This document shows, piece by piece, positions 35,668 through 61,969 of a stretch of 64,000 bases of DNA. The notes below the pieces were generated by a model. That model searched no databases. It saw nothing but the letters and a program-made list of their open reading frames with translations, and was not told where the DNA came from. Every line of letters starts with the position of its first letter. Position 1 is the stretch's first letter. A program made the position numbers and the translations under genes. The stretch is taken from positions 63,302,001-63,366,000 of the forward strand of contig OX638149.1 of NCBI GenBank assembly GCA_951804945.1. The letters run 5' to 3'. Source of the DNA: Podarcis cretensis. Its lineage: Eukaryota.

Positions 35668-35909
35668 CAGTGGTACCTCGGGTTACATACGCTTCAGGTT
35701 ACATACACTTCAGGTTACAAAATCCGCTAACCCAGAAATAGTACCTCAGGTTAAGAACTTTGCTTCAGGATGAGAACAGAAATCGTGCTCTGGCAGCGTG
35801 GCAGCAGCAGGAGGCCCCATTAGCTAAAGTGGTGCTTCAGGTTAAGAACAGTTTCAGGTTAAGCATGGACCTCTGGAACGAATTAAGTACTTAACCTGAG
35901 GTACCACTG
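35668..35909. mobile_element. Tc1/mariner (Tigger-like) MITE
   Basis: TIRs CAGTGGTACCTC / GAGGTACCACTG with TA TSD and repeated CAGGTTA motifs. Confidence 0.92.
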
Positions 35910-36372: not shown

Positions 36373-39300
36373 TCATGTCCGACTCTTCGTGACCCCATGG
36401 ACCAGAGAACGCCAGGCACTCCTGTCCTCCACTGCCCCCCGCAGCTTGGTCAGACTCATGCTGGTAACCTCGAAAACACTATCCAACCATCTCATCCTCT
36501 GTCGCCCCCTTCTCCTTGTGCCCTCCATCTTTCCCAACATCAGGGTCTTCTCCAGGGAGTCTTCTCTTCTCATGAGGTGGCCAAAGTATTGGAGCCTCAG
36601 CTTCACAATCTGCCCTTCCAGTGAGCACTCAGGGCTGATTTCCTTCAGAATGGAGAGGTTTGATCTTCTTGCAGTCCATGGGACTCTCAAGAGTCTCCTC
36701 CAGCACCATAATTCAAAAGCATCAATTCTTCGGCGATCAGCCTTCTTTATGGTCCAGCTCTCACTTCCATACATCACTACTGGGAAAACCATAGCTTTAA
36801 CTATACGGACCTTTGTTGGCAAGGTTATGTCTCTACTTCTCAAGATGCTGTCTAGGCCTGTCATTGCCCTTCTCCCAAGAAGCAGGCGTCTTTTAATTTC
36901 GTGGCTGCTGTCACCATCTGCAGTGATCATGGAGCCCAAGAAAGTAAAATCTCTCACTGCCTCCATTTCTTCCCCTTCTATTTGCCAGGAGGTGATGGGA
37001 CCAGTAGCCATGATCTTCGTTTTTTTGATGTTGAGCTTCAGACCATATTTTGCACTCTCCTCTTTCACCCTCAATAAAAGGTTCTTTAATTCCTCCTCAC
37101 TTTCTGCCATCAAGGTTGTGTCATCTGCATATCTGAGGTTGTTGATATTTCTTCCGGCAATCTTAATTCCGGCTAGGGATTCATCCAGCCCAGCCTTTCG
37201 CATGATGAATTCTGCATATAAGTTAAATAAGCAGGGAGACAAAATGCAGCCTTGTCGTACTCCTTTCCCAATTTTGAACCAGTCAGTTGTTCCATATCCA
37301 GTTCTAACTGTAGCTTCTTGTCCCACATAGAGATTTCTCAGGAGACAGATGAGGTGATCAGGCACTCCCATTTCTTTAAGAACTTGCCATAGTTTGCCAT
37401 GGTCGACACAGTCAAAGGCTTTTGCATAGTCAATGAAGCAGAAGTAAATGTCTTTCTGGAACTCTCTAGCTTTCTCCATAATCCAGCGCATGTTTGCAAT
37501 TTGGTCTCTGGTTCCTCTGCCTCTTCTAAATCCAGCTTGCACTTCTGGGAGTTCTCGGTCCACATACTGCTTGAGCCTTCCTTGTAGAATTTTAAGCATA
37601 ACCTTGCTAGCGTGAGAAATTAGTGCAATTGTGCGATAGTTGGAGCATTCTTTGGCACTGCCCTTCTTTGGGATTGGGATGTAGACTGATCTTCTCCAAT
37701 CTTCTGGCCACTGCTGAGTTTTCCAAACTTGCTGGCATATTGAGTGTAGCACCTTAACAGCATCATCTTTTAAAATTTTAAATAGTTCAGCTGGAATACC
37801 ATCACTTCCACTGGCCTTGTTATTTGCAGTGCTTTCTAAGGCCCATTTGACTTCACTCTCCAGGATGTCTGGCTCAAGGTCAGCAACCACACTACCTGGG
37901 GTATATGAGACATCCGTTTCTTTCTGGTATAATTCCTCTGTGTATTCTTGCCACCTCTTCTTGATGTCTTCTGCTTCTGTTAGGTCCTTTCCACTTTTGT
38001 CCTTTATTATGGAAATCTTTGTGCGAAATGTTCCTTTCATATCTCCAATTTTCTTGAACAGATCTCTGGTTCTTCCCATTCTATTGCTTTCCTCTATTTC
38101 TTTGCATTGCTTGTTTAAGAAGGTCTTCTTGTCTCTCCTTGCTATTCTTTGGAAATCTGCATTCAATTTCCTGTATGTTTCACGATCTCCCTTGCATTTT
38201 GCTTGCCTTCTCTCCCCCGCTATTTGTAAGGCCTCATTGGACAGCCACTTTGCTTTCTTGCATTTCCTTTTCATTGGGATGGTTTTCGTTGCTGCCTCCT
38301 GTATAATGTTACGAGCCTCCATCCATAGTTCTTCAGGCACTCTGTCCACCAAATCTAAATCCTTAAACCTGTTCCTCACTTCCACTGTGTATTCATAAGG
38401 GATTTGACTTAGATTGTATCTTACCGGCCCAGTGGTTTTTCCTACTTTCTTCAGTTTAAGCTTGAATTTTGCTATAAGAAGCTGATGATCTGAGCCACAG
38501 TCAGCTCCAGGTCTTGTTTTTGCTGACTGTATAGAGCTTCTCCATCTTTGGCTGCAGAGAATATAATCAATCTGATTTCGATGCTGCCCATCTGGTGATG
38601 TCCATGTGTAGAGTCGTCTCTTGTGTTGTTGGAAAAGCGTGTTTGTGATGACCAGCTTGTTCTCTTGACAGAACTCTATTAGCCTTTGCCCTGCTTCGTT
38701 TTGATCTCCAAGGCCAAACTTGCCAGTTGTTCCTTTTATCTCTTGACTCCCTACTTTAGCATTCCAATCCCCTATAATGAGAAGAACATCCTTCTTTGGT
38801 GTCACTTCTATAAGGTGTTGTAAGTCTTCATAGAATTGGTCAATTTCAGTTTCTTCAGCACCAGTAGTTGGTGCATAAACTTGGATCATTGTGATGTTAA
38901 AAGGTCTGCCTTGGATTCGTGTCGAGATCATTCTATCATTTTTGAGATTGCAACCCAGTACAGCTTTTGCCACTCTTTTGTTGACTATGAGGGCCACTCC
39001 ATTTCTTTTACGGGTTTCTTGCCCACAGTAGTAGATATGATGGTCATCCGAACTGAATTCACCCATTCCCGTCCATTTTAGTTCACTGATGCCCAGGATG
39101 TCAATATTTATTCTTGCCATCTCATTTTTGACCACCTCCAACTTACCCATGTTCATGGTTCTTACATTCCAGGTTCCTATGCAATATTTTTCTTTACAGC
39201 ATTGGACTTTCCTTTCGCTTCCAGGCATATCCGCAACTGAGCGTCCTTTCGGCTTTGGCCCAGCCGCTTCATCAGCTCTGGATCTACTTGTACTTGCCCT

Positions 39301-39462
39301 CCGCTCTTCCCCAGTAGCATGTTGGACGCCTTCCGACCTGAGGGGCTCATCTTCCAGCGTCATAACTTTTATATGCCTGTTGTCTTTGTCCATGGAGTTT
39401 TCTTGGCAGGGATACTGGAGTGGCTTGCCGATTCCTCCTCCAGGTGGATCACGTTTGGTCAA
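36373..39462 (-). CDS. BovB ORF: AP-like endonuclease + reverse transcriptase (1029 aa)
   Basis: Endonuclease motifs GTWNVRT, LGISE, QVYAPT, IGDWNAKVG, NQIDYIL and SDH. RT motifs QAGFR, FIDYAKAFDCVDH, GVRQGCILSP and YADD. No internal stops. The track start is TTG; the first ATG is at 39393. Confidence 0.96.
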   Translation of the reverse strand: MTKRDPPGGGIGKPLQYPCQENSMDKDNRHIKVMTLEDEPLRSEGVQHATGEERRASTSRSRADEAAGPKPKGRSVADMPGSERKVQCCKEKYCIGTWNVRTMNMGKLEVVKNEMARINIDILGISELKWTGMGEFSSDDHHIYYCGQETRKRNGVALIVNKRVAKAVLGCNLKNDRMISTRIQGRPFNITMIQVYAPTTGAEETEIDQFYEDLQHLIEVTPKKDVLLIIGDWNAKVGSQEIKGTTGKFGLGDQNEAGQRLIEFCQENKLVITNTLFQQHKRRLYTWTSPDGQHRNQIDYILCSQRWRSSIQSAKTRPGADCGSDHQLLIAKFKLKLKKVGKTTGPVRYNLSQIPYEYTVEVRNRFKDLDLVDRVPEELWMEARNIIQEAATKTIPMKRKCKKAKWLSNEALQIAGERRQAKCKGDRETYRKLNADFQRIARRDKKTFLNKQCKEIEESNRMGRTRDLFKKIGDMKGTFRTKISIIKDKSGKDLTEAEDIKKRWQEYTEELYQKETDVSYTPGSVVADLEPDILESEVKWALESTANNKASGSDGIPAELFKILKDDAVKVLHSICQQVWKTQQWPEDWRRSVYIPIPKKGSAKECSNYRTIALISHASKVMLKILQGRLKQYVDRELPEVQAGFRRGRGTRDQIANMRWIMEKAREFQKDIYFCFIDYAKAFDCVDHGKLWQVLKEMGVPDHLICLLRNLYVGQEATVRTGYGTTDWFKIGKGVRQGCILSPCLFNLYAEFIMRKAGLDESLAGIKIAGRNINNLRYADDTTLMAESEEELKNLLLRVKEESAKYGLKLNIKKTKIMATGPITSWQIEGEEMEAVRDFTFLGSMITADGDSSHEIKRRLLLGRRAMTGLDSILRSRDITLPTKVRIVKAMVFPVVMYGSESWTIKKADRRRIDAFELWCWRRLLRVPWTARRSNLSILKEISPECSLEGQIVKLRLQYFGHLMRREDSLEKTLMLGKMEGTRRRGRQRMRWLDSVFEVTSMSLTKLRGAVEDRSAWRSLVHGVTKSRT

Positions 39463-39572
39463 AACTCTCCACTATGACCTGTTCATCTTGGGTGCCCTGC
39501 TCGGCATAGTTCATAGCTTCTCTGAGTTCTTCAAGCCCCTTCGCCACGGCAAGGCAGTGATCCATGAAGGGG
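39446..39572 (-). ncRNA. Putative HDV-like self-cleaving ribozyme fold in the BovB 5' UTR
   Basis: Manual fold: P1 CCCCTTC/GAAGGGG, P2 GGATCAC/GTGATCC, P3 GCC/GGC, L3 TTGCCGT, an extended P4 (AGAACTC/GAGTTTT; GCTATGA/TCATAGT) and J4/2 C-C-A-A. The +1 base is a non-canonical C. Confidence 0.55.
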
Positions 39573-41989: not shown

Positions 41990-43200
41990 GGTTGCGTGTG
42001 GAGGTCCCCAAGCCACCCCCTAAATAAATCACAATTCACACAGATTTTTTGTTTAAGGTTTTTGGCATAATTTTGGCCACAACCTTATTAAAATACATAA
42101 TGTGAGTGGTTGCTTAGGCATTGGTTACGACTATCTGTCCCCGCCCCAGGACAGAACTGACTTCTGGATTCCAGCGAAAGCCAGTAAAGGAAAACAATAT
42201 TGGGGAGAGAATGGGGCTGGGCACCATATCCTCACCCCTCCTCACATGCTCCCAGGGGCTTGCGCGGCCCAAGCCCCTTGTCAGGGATTTGGACAAAAGC
42301 ATGGCAAACCCCTGGATTCCTCTAACAGAATTCCCTTGCAGCAGCAGCGTTGGAGGGGCAGGAACTGCCAACCCTTACCCCTCCACCAACCAAATTTTAA
42401 CCAATGCCTAACCGCAACGATTTGCTACGCACTAGGCAAAAACCAAATGGCACCAGCCAATCAGCCAAATGGAAAAAATTCCTACCAGGCCCCTGCTCCA
42501 AAGCAGATGACCTCATGACAGGCATAGCAATGTCAAACGCAACAGCCCTAAATTAGGGAGGGTAGGCAGGCGATCCGATGCACACAGCCAAAGGGACTGC
42601 ACCATGCTGCATGCTAAGAATATATAACCTTTGGGCCAACCCACTAAATGGTAACATCAAAATCTCCCTAACAACCCAAACTGACCCAATCACAGTCATG
42701 GCCATCCAAACAGTTCCACCCAGCAACCAAGGGGGGGAGTCCTGCTAGACCCCACCGCAACATGTGCCCTCCACGAAGGAAACACACTTTGTTGTACATG
42801 TTAATGTTCAAAAGAGAGAGTAAAATTAATCCATAAGTGGTATTTGGCCCCAACCAGCAGGGAAAAGGTGGTGGGGCGTTTCCGCCCAGGGCTGCCTCCC
42901 CCCGGGCATGGAGGCTCTGATGCTGGCTCCCCTGTTTGACAGCTGTGTGGAGGGTGGCCGTCTGCCAAGTATTGAAGGGGTGTTGGCTGGTGACTCTCGG
43001 GGGTCCCTTTACAGATCCCCACCTCAGTTAGCAACCAGCCCGAAGGGGCTGTGTGTGTGGTGTGTGTAGGGGAGAAGCAGGCTAGGCGATGTGTGGCCCA
43101 CAGGTTCTGTGTCAAAATGGTGTTCAAGCGGGCGGCCTAGTGGTGAAGTGACCACTGACACCACTTCCAAAATGGTGCCAAGGCTTGTGTGCTCCTTATG
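41990..43200 (-). mobile_element. Non-coding (non-autonomous) relative of the YR retroelement
   Basis: 41990-42415 is homologous, as reverse complement, to 60235-60687 and ends at the same CACGCAACC terminus. The upstream part is GC-rich with no recognisable ORF. The far boundary is uncertain (43200-43385). Confidence 0.7.
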
Positions 43201-43450: not shown

Positions 43451-45919
43451 TTGTTTAATTAAAAATAAGGACTAAACATGATTCAAGATTAAAGGTGAAT
43501 TTTACAATGTTGAAGGATAATTCATATGAACCTGCTTAGGATTTGCCCTCAGTTTGTGAGGCCCTTTCTTGTCAATTCATCTCCTGCCAGCTGATATCCA
43601 TCTGGTGGATACAACAGAGGGGGCTATTCTTGGTTGCTGCCCCTAAATTATGAAAAACATCCCAAGAGAGATTTGTCTGGCATCTTTTTACCAACTTTTT
43701 AAAGGTTCTTGACAGTTTTATTTCAGACTGTTTCATTTTCAGCAGGCTACCCCCCCCCCCCTTTATAATGAACTTCCTTGAGTTAACTTAGCTTAGGGGC
43801 CATGCCTATGTGTTTCATTTGCAACTCCTGTTGTGTTTTATTCAGTTGGTTTATTGCTGCTGAGGATTGCTTGCTGTTCTTAGAATTGTATTTTAAGCTT
43901 GCTTTTGTCATATATATTTAATTTATTACTTCATGAGTATGCCTTTAACATTGAAAATTAAGCCTACCCAGAAATGGAGAATGGTGGCATGTGTTTTTAT
44001 CTTGTTTTCGGCTTATCAAACATTTTATTTTTAAAAAAATGCTTTACATATTTTACTGGTGTTTTGTTTTTTGTTGGTCTTTTTTTTTTTTGCTTCATTC
44101 TTGTAAGCTGCTTTGAGGTTTTATTACAATCCAAAGGTACAGAAATCTTGTGAAATAAAATAACAAATGGATAAATGACACCAGCAACAGCAATAAATTT
44201 CCAGGTATAATTTGAAGTGGAGGCCTGAGTCAATATATATAACTGGACCAGATTTGCACATCTGATCAACGATTACCTCACTAAGTGGCAACGGGGAAAT
44301 GGGTGTTGCTCTCTCCTAAGTTACCCATTTCAAGGGAATGAAAAGGAACCAGTGCTAGATGTCCTTATAGGGCTTTAGTCAGGATCACTGGCTGTAAAGT
44401 GCCTGGCATGTTGCAATAGCTGAAATTTTCAGGCCTGGCAAAAGGACTTAGTGTCTATTGTGCTAACGAGAACTGTCTAAAAATCTATGAGAAATGAATT
44501 ATTTAAAATAGAACACACGATTCCATCACAGAAGTGCAGAAAACTGCAACAAGGGTACAAGTGTATGACATTATATGAAAATTAATCCAGAATTTCAGGC
44601 AGAAAAACAAACCGAATAACATTTAAATAAAATTGAAGAACTCTTTTTTAAAAAAAGAAGTATAGACCAATTACTTGTGGGTTGTTGTGGGGATCAAATG
44701 GGGAGGAACCATGTATCACTTTAAGTTTCATGGGGGAAAGGCAGGTTATAAATGTAATCAATATGTAAGATTATCTCAAGAAGGCAGAACAAGACTAGAC
44801 AAGCTGATGGTGCCTTCCCATGACAATTTGCCCACACTGAGGGAGGGCAGCATATCTGGAAACATTTCATTGGCCATCAGGTATCACCTGACTGTTCAAC
44901 CCAGGGAGCTTATAGGCTTCACTATGAACATTCCAACTGATAATTCTGTCCACTGACCAGTTTAGTGAACAGAGCAGGAAGCCAGTTTCCTGATCTACAT
45001 AACTTCTGGATTGAGTCCTGCAGCTTCTGTCATGAAACATCTTCTCTTAGGAACATATATTTGATTCTTTGCAGCAGAGTCTTTAATCAAAAGCAAATCC
45101 CAGAGTAAATGCCCAGAATCGCCTTCCCCACAGTCCCAAAAGTAACAACTTATTATCCTGGACCAAAATGTTTCTTCTCGCTTTTTGTTTTGAACCCCTT
45201 TGAGTATTATTGTTTTTAAAATTTGAAAATCACCAACTCCATGCCGCTGGATATGGTGTTTCATGGCATGTACATCCACAGGCAGCCTCTGGCTTTGAGA
45301 ATTCTTCCTACAGGTCACTGAAAGATTGAAGAGGCGACATGCCCTGTAAATCCGAAATCATCTGGCATTATTGAACATGCTCAGGTCACCAAAACCCAAC
45401 AGCATGTGCATTTTAAAAAGCCCATTCTGACTACTGAGAGTAATTAGCTCATGTTTATATGGTCTTTCTACCCACAGGCCAGAACACTGCTTTTTGATAG
45501 CTGGAAACCAATAGATCAAAAAGGCAACACAGGTGCATAGCTGAACAAAGGCTGACTGATATGAAAACATCCCACAGCAGCCCATCATGTAAACTACAAA
45601 GGATGACCTACAGGCAAACAAAAATATATGATATAAAGTATTGCACAGAGTAAGAAACTAAGAAGAACTCTGCTGACTGGCTGTGCTCACAGGGAGAGGG
45701 CCTATGGCAAATTGTCCCTAGAAGAGGAAGAGCAAACACTTTATTTATGATTTTGCTGCAATTGTTACTCACAGAATGACATATTGCTATATTAACCACA
45801 GATGCATACCAGGGAATAATGACCTATTATGTTTTCCCTTTTTTTCCTTCAAATTTCCAGTCTAATGCCTTTTTTGCAATAACAGCAACAATCTCCTTTA
45901 AAAATAGTAATGAGATGTA

Positions 45920-46145
45920 CAGTGGTACTTCGGGTTACATACGCTTCCGGTTACAGACTACGCAAACCCAGAAATAGTACCTTGGGTTAAGAACTTTGCT
46001 TCAGGATGAGATCAGAAATCATGTGGCGGTGGTGCAGTGGCAGCAGGAGGCCTGTTTAACTAAAGTGGTGCTTCAGGTTAAGAACAGTTTCAGGTTAAGA
46101 ACAGACCTCCAGTACGAATTAAGTTCTTAACCCAAGGTACCACTG
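45920..46145. mobile_element. Tc1/mariner (Tigger-like) MITE, same family as 35668
   Basis: TIRs CAGTGGTAC / GTACCACTG with TA TSD. Collinear with 35668-35909. Confidence 0.92.
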
Positions 46146-54252: not shown

Positions 54253-54420
54253 CCACACTCACCTTCATGTCAAAGTCCTTCATGCCTTATGGTCCAGCTT
54301 GGACCATCTCCTCCTGAACTAGTCCATCCTGTTACTGAATCATTCCCTGACTTCCCCTGCTTTCTGTAGAGCAGTGGTTAGTGACAGAACCCTTTACAGT
54401 TTGGTGTTCTGCATTTCAAA

Positions 54421-54740
54421 TGGATCAAACCTATCCATTTTTAATGAAATCAGTCCTGAGTGCTCACTGGAAGGACGGATCGTGAAGCTGAGGCTCCAAT
54501 ACTTTGACCACCTCACGAGAAGAGAAGACTCCCTGGAAAAGAACCTGATGTTGGGAAAGATGGAGGGCACAAGGAGAAGGGGACGACAGAGGACTAGATG
54601 GTTGGACAGTGTACTCAAAGCTACCAGCATGAGTTTGACCAAACTGTGGGAGGCAGTGGAAGATAAGGAATGCTTGGCGTGCTCTGGTCAATGGAGTCAC
54701 GAAGAGTCAGACACGACTAAACAACTAAACAACAACAACA
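54421..54740 (+). mobile_element. 5'-truncated BovB (3' end)
   Basis: Encodes SNLSIFNEISPECSLEGRIVKLRLQYF and has a (CAA)n tail. The 8-bp TSD ATTTCAAA is at 54413-54420 and 54741-54748. Confidence 0.95.
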
Positions 54741-55563
54741 ATTTCAAACACACTTACCCGGGGTGCTCCCCTGTTGACTATGCTGATGCCATTTTGGCAC
54801 CAGGCAAAGGCCTTACTTTCTGAGCCTTTTAAACCTTGTAAGCCTATGTGAACTTTATATCTGCTATGATTTATTTCTGATGCTTTGTCTGCTTCTTTAT
54901 GCTGCCTTTTCATTTATTTTATGAGATTGTATCGATTCTGTTATTGTGGCTCACTGTGGGAACACCAGGAGCTAAAAGTACAGGTAATATATTTAAATAA
55001 GTATATACATAAAACATATAAAAAGTGTTTAATGTACAAAACACTTTACGGTTACTAAATGTGAAAAGAGGTATACAACATCTGTAGTGTTCCTCTTCAT
55101 AAGACCTCTGTTCAGAAAGGTTGTTTTTTTTAAAGTATCTGGTAATAAAAAGGTGGATGGTTAATTCAAGTTTAGAAAGTAGTGTTTTGAAGGACTTTGG
55201 CTCAAACTGGGATATAAAGTTTTACAAGACTTTTTCTATATATAAAAAAGGTGAGAGCCTCTGGGGTGATTAAGATTAATTGTGCTGGAGTTTTGGAACA
55301 GAACAATTTATACCTAGAACTAGAAATTTTTAAAAGTAAAGAATAACAGTTTAGATTAAAACTTTATCTGGGTTTTGATAGAGATATGGTGGTGAGGATT
55401 TCTGGAAATATGCTTTTTGTGACAGAAAAAACGGATTGAGAACCAGAGGCTTACCAGCTAAATACAAAAATTTCTGTTTGGAATATTTCTATACAGTATT
55501 TCTAATTGGAAAATAGTTTGATATCCTCTGTTATATATACCCAAGCTGAAAGAATGCATGTTG

Positions 55564-59335: not shown

Positions 59336-59524
59336 CAGTGGTACCTCAGGTTACAAACGCTTCAGGTTACAGACTCCGCTAACCCGGAAGTAATATCTCA
59401 GGTTAAGAACTTTAGCTCAGGATGAGAACAGAAATCGTGCAGTGGTGGCGCAGCGGCAGTGGGAGGCCCCATTAGCTAAAGTGGTACCCCAGGTTAAGAA
59501 CAGTTTCAGGTTAAGAACGGACCT
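59336..59524. mobile_element. Truncated Tc1/mariner MITE, same family as 35668
   Basis: The left TIR and TA are present and the sequence is collinear with 35668 up to GGACCT, where it is fused to YR-element sequence. The right TIR is absent. Confidence 0.88.
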
Positions 59525-59531
59525 TAATTTC

Positions 59532-59588
59532 ATTAAGGATCTGGGCCGGTGGAAGTCGGACACGTTCAGAGGTTATGTACGGAAATGA
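59532..59588 (+). pseudogene. Tyrosine recombinase C-terminal remnant (box II: GRW-S...Y)
   Basis: ATT AAG GAT CTG GGC CGG TGG AAG TCG GAC ACG TTC AGA GGT TAT GTA CGG AAA TGA translates to IKDLGRWKSDTFRGYVRK*. This is the GRWxS...Y catalytic-tyrosine motif of DIRS/Ngaro recombinases. Confidence 0.8.
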
Positions 59589-59599
59589 TGTGATTTTGT

Positions 59600-60202
59600 G
59601 TGCTTACGTTTCTTGTTTTCACCCTAGGTCCAGCTGCTATACGCATCTGGATAGTGGGGCACAGTATTGTACATTGGGCTGCTAGCAGAGCTCGACAGTC
59701 CGGATTGGTTGATGGCCTTGGCCTTCCGCAGCACGTGCGGGTGTCCTGGATCTCCAGAAGGGGGATGCTGTGGAAGGAACTTCTACCGCTTATGCAGAGG
59801 CGTGTTCTCATGGAAGGCCCTCCTACGGCGATTGTGGTGCAGCTCGGGGAAAATTATATGGTTTCCTCTTCCTGTTATGTTCTGCGTGCTGTTATGTTGC
59901 AAGATTTGAGGGAATTGGCAGCCATGGTGCCCGCAACTAAAATAATTTGGTCACAGTTGCTTCAACGCCACAATTGGTGGGGTAGTCCCTGTTCAGCTGC
60001 CACTGAATGGGTTAGAAAGTGGATTAATTCTGCAGTGAGCAAGTTGGTGGTTGATTTGGGTGGGTTTGTGATTCTGCACCCTCTTATTACCTTCAAAGCC
60101 ACTGAATTCTATAGGATGGATGGGGTTCATCTTTCATCAGTTGGGAATGATGTTTGGTTCAATTCGGTGGTGGACAAGTTGAGGGTGTGTTTGAGTTTGT
60201 GA
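59600..60202 (+). CDS. SGNH/GDSL-type hydrolase ORF of the YR retroelement
   Basis: Block I IWIVGHSIVHW, block II RRGMLW, block III VQLGEN(Y) and block V DGVH. Open for 200 codons with no ATG near the start. A splice acceptor falls at 59627/59628. Confidence 0.85.
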   Translation: MLTFLVFTLGPAAIRIWIVGHSIVHWAASRARQSGLVDGLGLPQHVRVSWISRRGMLWKELLPLMQRRVLMEGPPTAIVVQLGENYMVSSSCYVLRAVMLQDLRELAAMVPATKIIWSQLLQRHNWWGSPCSAATEWVRKWINSAVSKLVVDLGGFVILHPLITFKATEFYRMDGVHLSSVGNDVWFNSVVDKLRVCLSL

Positions 60203-61367
60203 GTGGTTGGCGGCGAGCGTAAGGGCTCGAGTGGCGGTTAGGTATTGGTTTAAATTGGTTGGTGGAGGGGTATGGATTGGCTGTGCCTGCCCCTCCAATG
60301 CTGCTGCTGTATGGGAATTCCGTTAAAGGAATTCAGGGGCTTACCATCCTTTCGTCCAAACCCCTGGAATCGGGTTTGGGCCATGTAAGCCCCTAGGAGC
60401 ATGCGGGGAGAAGCTGAGGGTCTGTGCCGCAGCTCCAGTTATCCCTGATCTTGTTCCTCCACACTGGCTTTCGCTGGAATCCAGGAGCCAGTGCTGTCCC
60501 CAAGGCGGGGGGGGGGGGGGGGAGGACGACGGGACAGATAGTCATAACAAATGCCTAAGCAACCACTCACAATTTGTATGTTAATAAAGTTGTGGCCAAA
60601 ATTATGCCAAAAACCTTAAACAAAAATTCATGTGTGATGTGTGAGTTATTGGGGTAAGAGTGTTTTGGGGGACCTCAGCACGCAACCCTTGTGGACATTC
60701 AAGAATCCAAACTCCATGCCACTGCCTTTAAATGCTCTCATGACATGCCAGATGATACTTGAAGCCCTGCTCATGCATTACAACAATGAATTAGGGCAAG
60801 ACATAAATTCGCTAATGTGCAGTTAATCACTAAGGAACAAGAAGACACATTCCTCAGACTGTGCTAGCTGCATGCAAATGAAACAGAACAAGGATGCAGA
60901 AGGGAAGAACAATACAGAGAATGAGAGAAAATGATGCTGACTCATGCCCACCCTCTCAAATTTTTGATGGTTGAGCCTTTACTAGTCATCCAGTGGCCTT
61001 TATTTTATTAATGTCCTTCCATCATCAAAGTCTATTCTGATCTGCTATGGCTGGTGTGCTAGCTAACTTGCACAGATGTGGATACCGGTTGACTTTCAAA
61101 GCACCCTAACTTACTCCTTTCAGGTTTTTCTACATAGAGCTGATATATTGGTCAGGAAGCTAGTCATGCACATCATTCTGAATTCCCACAAAGGCACAAG
61201 TACTTTGCAAGCAATTGTTTCAAAATCTGAATTTATAGCTCATAAAGATGGTGATATGCTGATATTTGAATTGGCCCATGATAGAGAAGGCTGTTTTTGA
61301 CCTACTTATTCTACCATGGCTCCCAAATATTTCTCATGATGTGCACCTACACTTCCACTGTCTATGA

Positions 61368-61440
61368 CAGGCATCCCCAAACTCGGCCCTCCAGCTGTTT
61401 TGGGACTACAACTCCCATCATCCCTAGCTAACAGGACCAG
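61368..61440. mobile_element. Left half of a palindromic 'GGACTACAACTCCCATCA' MITE, cut by BovB
   Basis: Same family as the more complete copies at about 2231-2360, 13880-14010, 24784-24880, 46205-46340 and 50790-50910. Confidence 0.7.
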
Positions 61441-61769
61441 TTGTTGTTGTTTAGTCGTTTAGTCGTGTCCGACTCTTCGTGACCCCATGGACCCCATGGA
61501 CCAGGAGTGCCACGCCAGGCACTCCTGTCTTCCACTGCCTCCCGCAGTTTGGTCAGACTCATGTTTGTGGCTTCGAGAACACTGTCCAACCATCTCGTCC
61601 TCTGTCGTCCCCTTCTCCTTGTGCCCTCAATCTTTCCCAATGACAGGGTCTTTTCCAGGGAGTCTTCTCTTCTCATGAGGTGGCCAAAGTATTCGAGCCT
61701 CAGCTTCATGATCTGTCCTTCCAGTGACCACTCAGGGCTGATTTCCTTCAGAATGGATGCGTTTGATCT
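61441..61769 (-). mobile_element. 5'-truncated BovB (3' end)
   Basis: Matches the full-length 3' end (KLRLEYFGHLMRREDSLEK), with a (CAA)n tail and a small internal duplication ACCCCATGG x2. No TSD seen. Confidence 0.95.
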
Positions 61770-61969
61770 GAGAGTGTGAGACAGGAAGTCTCAGTACTGT
61801 TGGTGTATTGTTGTAAGTTAGTTTCACTTCTGTGTGTGATGCTTTTCTGTACAGCTGCTGAGAGAGCACAGACATGCTGATGGACTCTTTGTATATAGAC
61901 TGTAAAATAAAGTAGTTTAGAGCTACTGATTGACTCTTTCTTCTGCTATGATATGCCAGAAGACAAGTG

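Follow-up and report, generated by a model that had tools for sequence, protein, structure and literature searches.

Evidence for a selected plus-strand RNA fold in the B split direct repeat of a lizard Ngaro retrotransposon

Self-priming, in which an intramolecular helix supplies the RT primer, is used by Tf1. For the DIRS order, the consulted sections of PMC7192593 describe the RT primer as unknown and RT initiation as open, and cite the suggestion of Poulter and Goodwin that DIRS-1 primes itself from a 3′ hairpin. The helix described here resembles that hairpin (PMC7192593) in being an intramolecular helix proposed as the primer source. It differs from those of DIRS-1 and Tf1, however, in being long-range (it closes about 310 nt) and in lying at the boundary of a split direct repeat, and its cleavage site is hypothetical.

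The layout of a Ngaro element with an SGNH ORF is known from Xenopus DIRS-53_XT (PMC9210276), which shares with the lizard element the order A1-gag-RT/RH-YR-SGNH-B1-A2-B2 and near-identical repeats. In the lizard element, however, B is about 430 bp long, compared with 152 bp in DIRS-53_XT, and a conserved spacer of ~160 bp separates A2 from B2; the phrase 'secondary structure' is absent from the consulted text of PMC9210276. Our literature searches turned up neither a structured RNA in Ngaro repeats nor an ENE among DIRS or Ngaro elements, though a mention in the Tycowski ENE surveys, the Goodwin and Poulter papers or supplements is possible. Ngaro elements, transposon ENEs and structured terminal repeats are thus each known already; what is new here is a closing stem specific to B1 and a predicted spacer closure, with an ENE-like loop, at B2. 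This RNA architecture of a known element is real, selected and apparently undescribed.

The element and its copies

The window, a stretch of 64,000 nt of the Podarcis cretensis genome, contains two fragments of the family. The structured region belongs to a Ngaro retrotransposon (DIRS order, tyrosine recombinase, SGNH), of which it is the B split direct repeat. Intact relatives were recognised among 20 ten-kb loci picked around hydrolase matches, eight of which have the order A1-gag-RT/RH-YR-SGNH-B1-A2-spacer-B2, with an A1 of about 210-220 bp, a B1 of about 390-460 bp and B1 and B2 of the same element 96-100% identical. Their ORFs match RVT_1 (E 8.8e-14) and Phage_integrase (E 2.4e-6), and the gag-like ORF only a CCCH finger, weakly; the ORFs scanned gave no methyltransferase match. 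From this layout it follows that the structured region consists of the B repeat (60232-60685) and the ORF end. The features of the first copy are as follows.

59532..60202, plus strand: 5′-truncated Ngaro remnant (end of the YR region and SGNH-hydrolase-like ORF), homologous to intact relatives from 59531-59532
59626-59627, plus strand: splice-acceptor-like AG; acceptor-like tract in 11 of 13 copies inspected
60200-60202, plus strand: TGA stop of the SGNH-hydrolase-like ORF
60197..60209, plus strand: P1 5′ arm, formed by the ORF end and external to the B repeat; a closing partner at B1 only
60214..60229, plus strand: P1a hairpin, specific to B1 (342 of 365 cells paired, 73 sequences)
60232..60685, plus strand: B split direct repeat, from TGGCGG (60232-60237) to CACGCAA; no A2-spacer-B2 follows this copy
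60239-60249 with 60547-60557, plus strand: P2 long-range stem (786 of 796 cells paired, 73 sequences)
60263-60297, plus strand: P3, within P2
60315-60334, plus strand: P4 with GTTAAA loop, within P2
60335-60394, plus strand: P5/P6, within P2
about 60398-60460, plus strand: P7, within P2, from single-sequence folds and outside the per-helix scoring
60462-60493, plus strand: P8, within P2
60494-60537, plus strand: P9, within P2
60560..60572, plus strand: P1 3′ arm; from swap tests, its partner is the ORF end at B1 and, over a shorter length, the spacer end at B2
60583-60588, plus strand: AATAAA, candidate poly(A) signal by its sequence
60589-60596, plus strand: conserved GTTGTGGC, directly after the hexamer
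near 60608, within 60583..60650, plus strand: candidate CA cleavage site and GT-rich downstream tract, of presumed use

The first copy, truncated at about 59532, lacks the gag, RT/RH and tyrosine recombinase ORFs and A2-spacer-B2, and the second, on the minus strand, is a solo A-spacer-B; neither can be active, and both are fragments. Solo A-(internal)-B remnants like the second copy are SIRE of VIPER (PMC6681497) and the isolated AB repeats of Cafeteria Ngaro (PMC8547959), for which the consulted parts of these two papers report no RNA structure. The first-pass annotation had called the ORF a hydrolase. The window protein itself has no Pfam match and a PDB search with the hydrolase found nothing; relatives match Lipase_GDSL_2, but with scores under the curated cut-off (E 1.7e-5 and 1.4e-3), and the GH(S) and DGxH motifs are invariant.

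The family is abundant in its own genome. A DNA search of the 1.5-Gb assembly gave 2,558 candidates, and many of the 40 scored begin at window position 60232; for the remnant at 59532..60202, all 150 scored genome matches were 46-100% identical. The exact spacer motif occurs at least 3,111 times (control 0). A search of the genome for deeper hydrolase lineages returned mostly loci already in the set. Four contig sets, presumed to be RNA, cover the region piecewise and are uninformative on ends or strand.

Among 80 hydrolase loci (L043-L122), 24 carry the spacer, 34 end at B without it and 22 are unclassified; at least part of A1 is kept in seven of nine such ten-kb loci. Half-elements of either kind are frequent, and may therefore be products of precise resolution at the internal B|A junction and not of decay. 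The B1|A2 junction (e.g. L049:7890-7945) is a candidate recombinase site: its core, CAC(G/A)CAAAG, has a 2-4 nt A-rich overlap at both element ends, and next to it comes a hairpin of clade-dependent sequence. Directly 3′ of A2, and marking the 3′ boundary of the A repeat, 13 of 16 elements have a C-rich tract that is a short-loop G-quadruplex motif on the cDNA strand (L049:8116-8130; degenerate at window 42556-42572, minus strand). A possibly non-autonomous subfamily (L004, L006, L009, L010 and L016) has lost an internal part of the hydrolase region and carries, upstream, a second B-like segment that has diverged. The acceptor-like tract (window 59605-59628) before the SGNH ORF is branch-point-like and pyrimidine-rich with a YAG; the hydrolase mRNA is therefore likely spliced, and would have its end at B1. 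Elsewhere in the window, a 1032-aa endonuclease-RT frame (36373-39471, minus strand; Pfam RVT_1 and Exo_endo_phos) belongs to what we take to be an RTE/BovB-like LINE, with 3′ fragments at about 54323-54823 and 61428-61790, and a short interspersed repeat, 83-86% alike, lies at 35694-35872, 45918-46108 and 59346-59524, the last adjoining the truncated 5′ end of the Ngaro fragment.

Selection on the fold and its strand

The multibranched structure proposed for this region on first inspection was found as drawn in most respects. Its 13-bp closing stem (60197-60209/60560-60572) is perfect and spans the stop codon, and all stems listed are present at the coordinates assigned to them. The second long-range stem exists too, but it is not fully canonical in the window copy, having one G-T and one G-A; these positions are C-G in 70/73 and G-C in 70/73 sequences, so that the mismatches are copy-specific. 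The CCAAACCC/GGGTTTGG hairpin is likewise present, but the register first given to it is paired in only 140 of 180 cells; the register conserved in the family is GTCC/GGGC (91 of 92 cells paired). The diverged copy, 78% identical to 60231-60687, does have the perfect 14-bp stem ascribed to it (42114-42127/42398-42411) but, as a B2 that follows the spacer, has no 5′ arm for the 13-bp stem. The compensatory change from A-T to G-C in AGGGG..C/G..CCCCT is genuine: among 23 window-clade sequences, 16 have A-T and 6 have G-C at pair 60343:60386. For the 376-nt region the folding energy is -176.8 kcal/mol (z -4.74), a stability that none of 100 shuffles equalled. No Rfam family matches the structure, as had been supposed: the best E values were 0.19 for the window and 0.44 for five relatives, all these matches being far below gathering scores and none a ribozyme.

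For the comparison between lineages, 92 hydrolase loci with 41-100% identity to the window protein were gathered; removal of 17 (duplicates, insertions, frameshifts, no hexamer) and then of one more without a hexamer left 74 sequences (73 distinct) in 24 clusters. Unusually stable folding (z below -3) was seen for 18 of 23 lineage representatives and for none of the 23 ORF controls (16 shuffles each). Within the window clade (72 pairs, 23 sequences, the originally proposed helices with P6 in its conserved register), we counted 10 same-branch double changes to a canonical pair, whereas 0.45±0.73 were expected when partners were permuted (0/1000 permutations). Across all 73 sequences the count was 11 against 1.2±1.0 (0/300 permutations), with a different helix set in which the misplaced P6 contributed noise. 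These permutation p-values are too optimistic, since the lineages fall into two or three deep clades, and the helices tested were picked from folds of the very sequences tested; furthermore, the alignments used sequence only, so the middle helices are badly aligned between clades, which distorts the all-73 counts for P1, P3 and P5.

RNAalifold on 24 sequences retained P2, P4 and P5, with two-sided changes at 14 of 35 pairs, and offered another outer pairing in place of P1, which it missed because the P1 register shifts between clades. No pair reached E<0.05 in an all-versus-all G-test with a tree null. Its top pair, 60249:60547 (E 0.75), nevertheless lies in P2, and ranks 6 and 26 also fall in the P2/P4/P1 set; the scan has low power because there are few deep lineages. 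The permutation tests thus speak for covariation among copies and the all-versus-all scan does not. P1, P1a, P2, P4, P5, P8 and P9 are conserved, and the selected cis-acting structure outside any Rfam family that the first-pass annotation envisaged is supported by the compensatory changes and the fold z-scores.

The z-score does not fix the strand, being equally strong on the minus strand (mean -5.1 compared with -4.6 on plus). In wobble-free folds, however, 1x1 loops read on the plus strand were G-T in 30 cases and A-C in 4 (10:6 in the ORF control), with 17 of 24 lineages leaning to G-T and none to A-C. This excess indicates that the fold acts as plus-strand RNA and not as cDNA, and disfavours the ssDNA role once offered as an option. 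A role in single-stranded cDNA of the minus strand, or a neutral origin of the structure from base composition, is extremely unlikely: the equally low minus-strand z would fit such a reading, as would the single-stranded cDNA described for DIRS-1 in the consulted part of PMC7192593, but the 30:4 ratio, the compensatory changes and the absence of unusual folding in ORF controls of similar composition largely refute it. We conclude that the region very probably forms a selected plus-strand RNA structure.

Closure of the fold at B1 and its predicted closure at B2

Because the 5′ arm of P1 is ORF sequence outside B, P1 and P1a are confined to B1. When taken from the same lineage, ORF-end and pre-hexamer arms (P0/P1) pair with -29.1 kcal/mol, compared with -22.7 kcal/mol when swapped between lineages (0/20000 permutations; control p 0.25; 14 lineages). 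In the non-window clades P0 pairing extends into AAUAAA, and P0 is lost in the window clade. The spacer that precedes B2 is represented in the window by the second copy.

42573..42790, minus strand: second copy (solo A-spacer-B), A repeat
42422..42530, minus strand: spacer domain with the ENE-like U-rich internal loop, second copy
42481-42487, minus strand: spacer lower stem, with U tracts within 42470-42480 and 42435-42445
41992..42418, minus strand: second copy, B2 repeat (78% identity to 60231-60687)

At B2 the conserved spacer is predicted to close the fold instead of the ORF end. Spacer GGT(A)TTGGC would pair with the P1 3′ arm, over a shorter length than at B1 (swap test p 0.02, 11 elements). 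An invariant spacer TCACAAC is moreover complementary to GTTGTGG just 3′ of the hexamer, with a pairing probability of at least 0.66 in 9 of 11 elements; this pairing showed no covariation (swap p 0.27), and TCACAAC, the B2-pairing segment of other copies, has been lost from the second window copy.

The spacer is conserved between clades whose A repeats are very different. It folds as a three-way junction, the right arm of which reads GGTAGG-A(A/G)-U tract-CCA...TGG-U tract-(C)G-CCTAC. Long-context folds make the lower stem probable in 7 of 11 cases; the RNAalifold consensus keeps both stems with slight two-sided support (3/23 pairs), the stems being nearly invariant and so offering little covariation. 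This arm matches the anatomy of an ENE, a U-rich internal loop that forms a triple helix with poly(A) (PMC12501189, PMC13541005). As in the ENEs of KSHV PAN, Arabidopsis Evade and plant and fungal transposable elements that the consulted parts of these papers describe, U tracts are paired beside short G-C-rich stems, and, as in the plant and fungal elements, the loop lies near a retrotransposon 3′ end (PMC12501189, PMC13541005). The Ngaro spacer differs from these known ENEs in having a single loop, in its distance from the hexamer and in belonging to an animal YR element, and its triplex is putative. The pattern is present in all 16 full elements, the same sequences from which it was derived, with U5/U5 or longer in 10 of them and U3-U4 in the young families nearest the window. 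The loop lies ~450 nt upstream of the hexamer in sequence and would be adjacent to it only via the predicted B2 closure. On this anatomy, the chances that the spacer loop is a working ENE appear about even.

The two closures could also be read as serving only 3′-end processing and stability: at B1 the fold would hide the poly(A) signal and allow readthrough, at B2 the ENE-like loop would shield the tail, and priming would have no part. The recurrence of the ENE-like pattern and its U tracts agrees with this, as does P0, in which each of the first three bases of AAUAAA is paired in 46-49 of the 50 sequences outside the window clade; in all seven distant-clade elements, too, the hexamer with 10 nt on either side is costlier to open at B1 than at B2. 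The order is reversed, however, in all seven window-clade elements (L078 and L092 left out), where P0 is lost, and the hexamer alone is harder to open at B1 in only 4 of 14 elements. Since it also leaves the invariant P2 and the B boundary unexplained, we consider this reading possible but somewhat unlikely. Simple occlusion of the poly(A) signal as a general switch is not supported (hexamer 4/14; hexamer ±10 nt 7/14, split by clade). In most relatives the hexamer lies +325 to +365 from the stop. HIV-1 places the two copies of its repeated poly(A) signal in different folds, by means of the poly(A) hairpin; the shared signal of the Ngaro B copies likewise lies in different predicted folds, but its order of occlusion is inconsistent across clades.

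The multibranch core might itself be the signal, with the P4 GTTAAA loop and the P5/P6 internal loop acting in Gag packaging, dimerisation or nuclear export and the closures as mere scaffolding. Loops kept in sequence amid changing helices are typical of protein-binding sites, and the P4 loop and GTCC/GGGC are indeed kept while neighbouring helices turn over. But the core is in both B1 and B2, and would therefore not by itself tell genomic RNA from an mRNA that ends at B1, which makes this reading distinctly unlikely.

The B boundary and the proposed start of reverse transcription

Identity between B1 and B2 begins exactly at TGGCGG in 11 of 17 elements; in two it extends further, and in four it starts later, inside or after TGGCGG (B2 of L101 and of L111 lack TGGCGG). 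The motif sits 7-8 nt before the AGGCATTGG core of P2. The B1-only P1 arm and a sharp B boundary at TGGCGG beside P2 are thus both observed. B1 and B2 are identical over their full length while clades differ at more than half of positions, and so both are probably copied from one template in each cycle. Judged from sequence, the repeat boundary favours priming or junction formation over packaging, although strand transfer without the fold could also explain a fixed boundary.

More distant relatives from metagenomes numbered 19, at 26-39% identity. Of the 10 that were folded, with ends set by eye, four had z at or below -3 and six no strong fold (z above -3). Three SGNH-Ngaro relatives (L128, L129 and L140), which are not alignable to lizard B, have TGGC(G/A)G at or shortly before a 12-18 bp long-range stem 3′ of the stop. 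These three and L137 and L139 also carry a 3′-end motif like A(A/T)TAAAG(T/C)TATGAC or TGCGGCC, and hairpins between repeated TGGCG in a layout similar to lizard B1.

We examined the boundary for a tRNA primer. The 5′ strand of P2, GCATTGG, with a TGG 7 nt upstream, could form a split primer-binding site for host tRNA-Gly(GCC), since the P2 core is the acceptor stem of host tRNA-Gly genes, and in one clade 12 nt match and the tRNA outbinds the cis partner (L088, -27.4 versus -25.0). A contiguous TGG-starting complement of a tRNA 3′ end is absent, however, the match being split by 7 nt (tRNA-Gly only), and no tRNA-like fold was found in three element ends. Furthermore, the next pair, 60249:60547, covaries with the cis strand and not with the tRNA, and L059 alters the core with compensation. 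In 7 of 8 lineages binding is stronger with the cis partner than with the tRNA (genomic tRNA end, without CCA), and a tRNA primer is therefore a minor rival and very unlikely.

Our preferred reading is that the B fold, closed by the ORF end at B1 and by the spacer at B2, would mark where the genomic RNA ends 3′ and where RT starts or a cDNA circle is closed, a proposal that we hold at roughly even odds. In this scheme, the B1 fold would end the mRNA, likely spliced for the hydrolase, and the B2-spacer fold the genomic RNA, with the predicted B2 closure setting the tail beside the ENE-like loop. RT would start at or near the TGGCGG/P2 boundary of B2, or the circle would close there; B2 would be mainly the priming and tail-protecting end, and both B copies would be regenerated from B1. 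An extended form of the scheme, which we put forward tentatively and regard as unlikely, is self-priming: the B2 3′ strand CCAAUGC...GC(C)A, which resembles a tRNA end, would pair at TGGCGG, be cleaved and prime RT at the B boundary, while the spacer ENE clamps the tail and the ORF end locks B1 in the other fold.

If true, self-priming of this kind would supply the missing primer of split-repeat YR retrotransposons, together with an ENE in an animal retrotransposon. An ENE-like tail clamp, if true, would extend poly(A) triplexes, so far mostly those of plant and fungal transposons, to an animal YR element. For the handling by one RNA of two B repeats that are identical and share a poly(A) signal, the helices and the base-precise boundary are now targets for mutation, and they offer concrete means of testing where RT starts in a family whose spacer is present at least 3,111 times in the genome.
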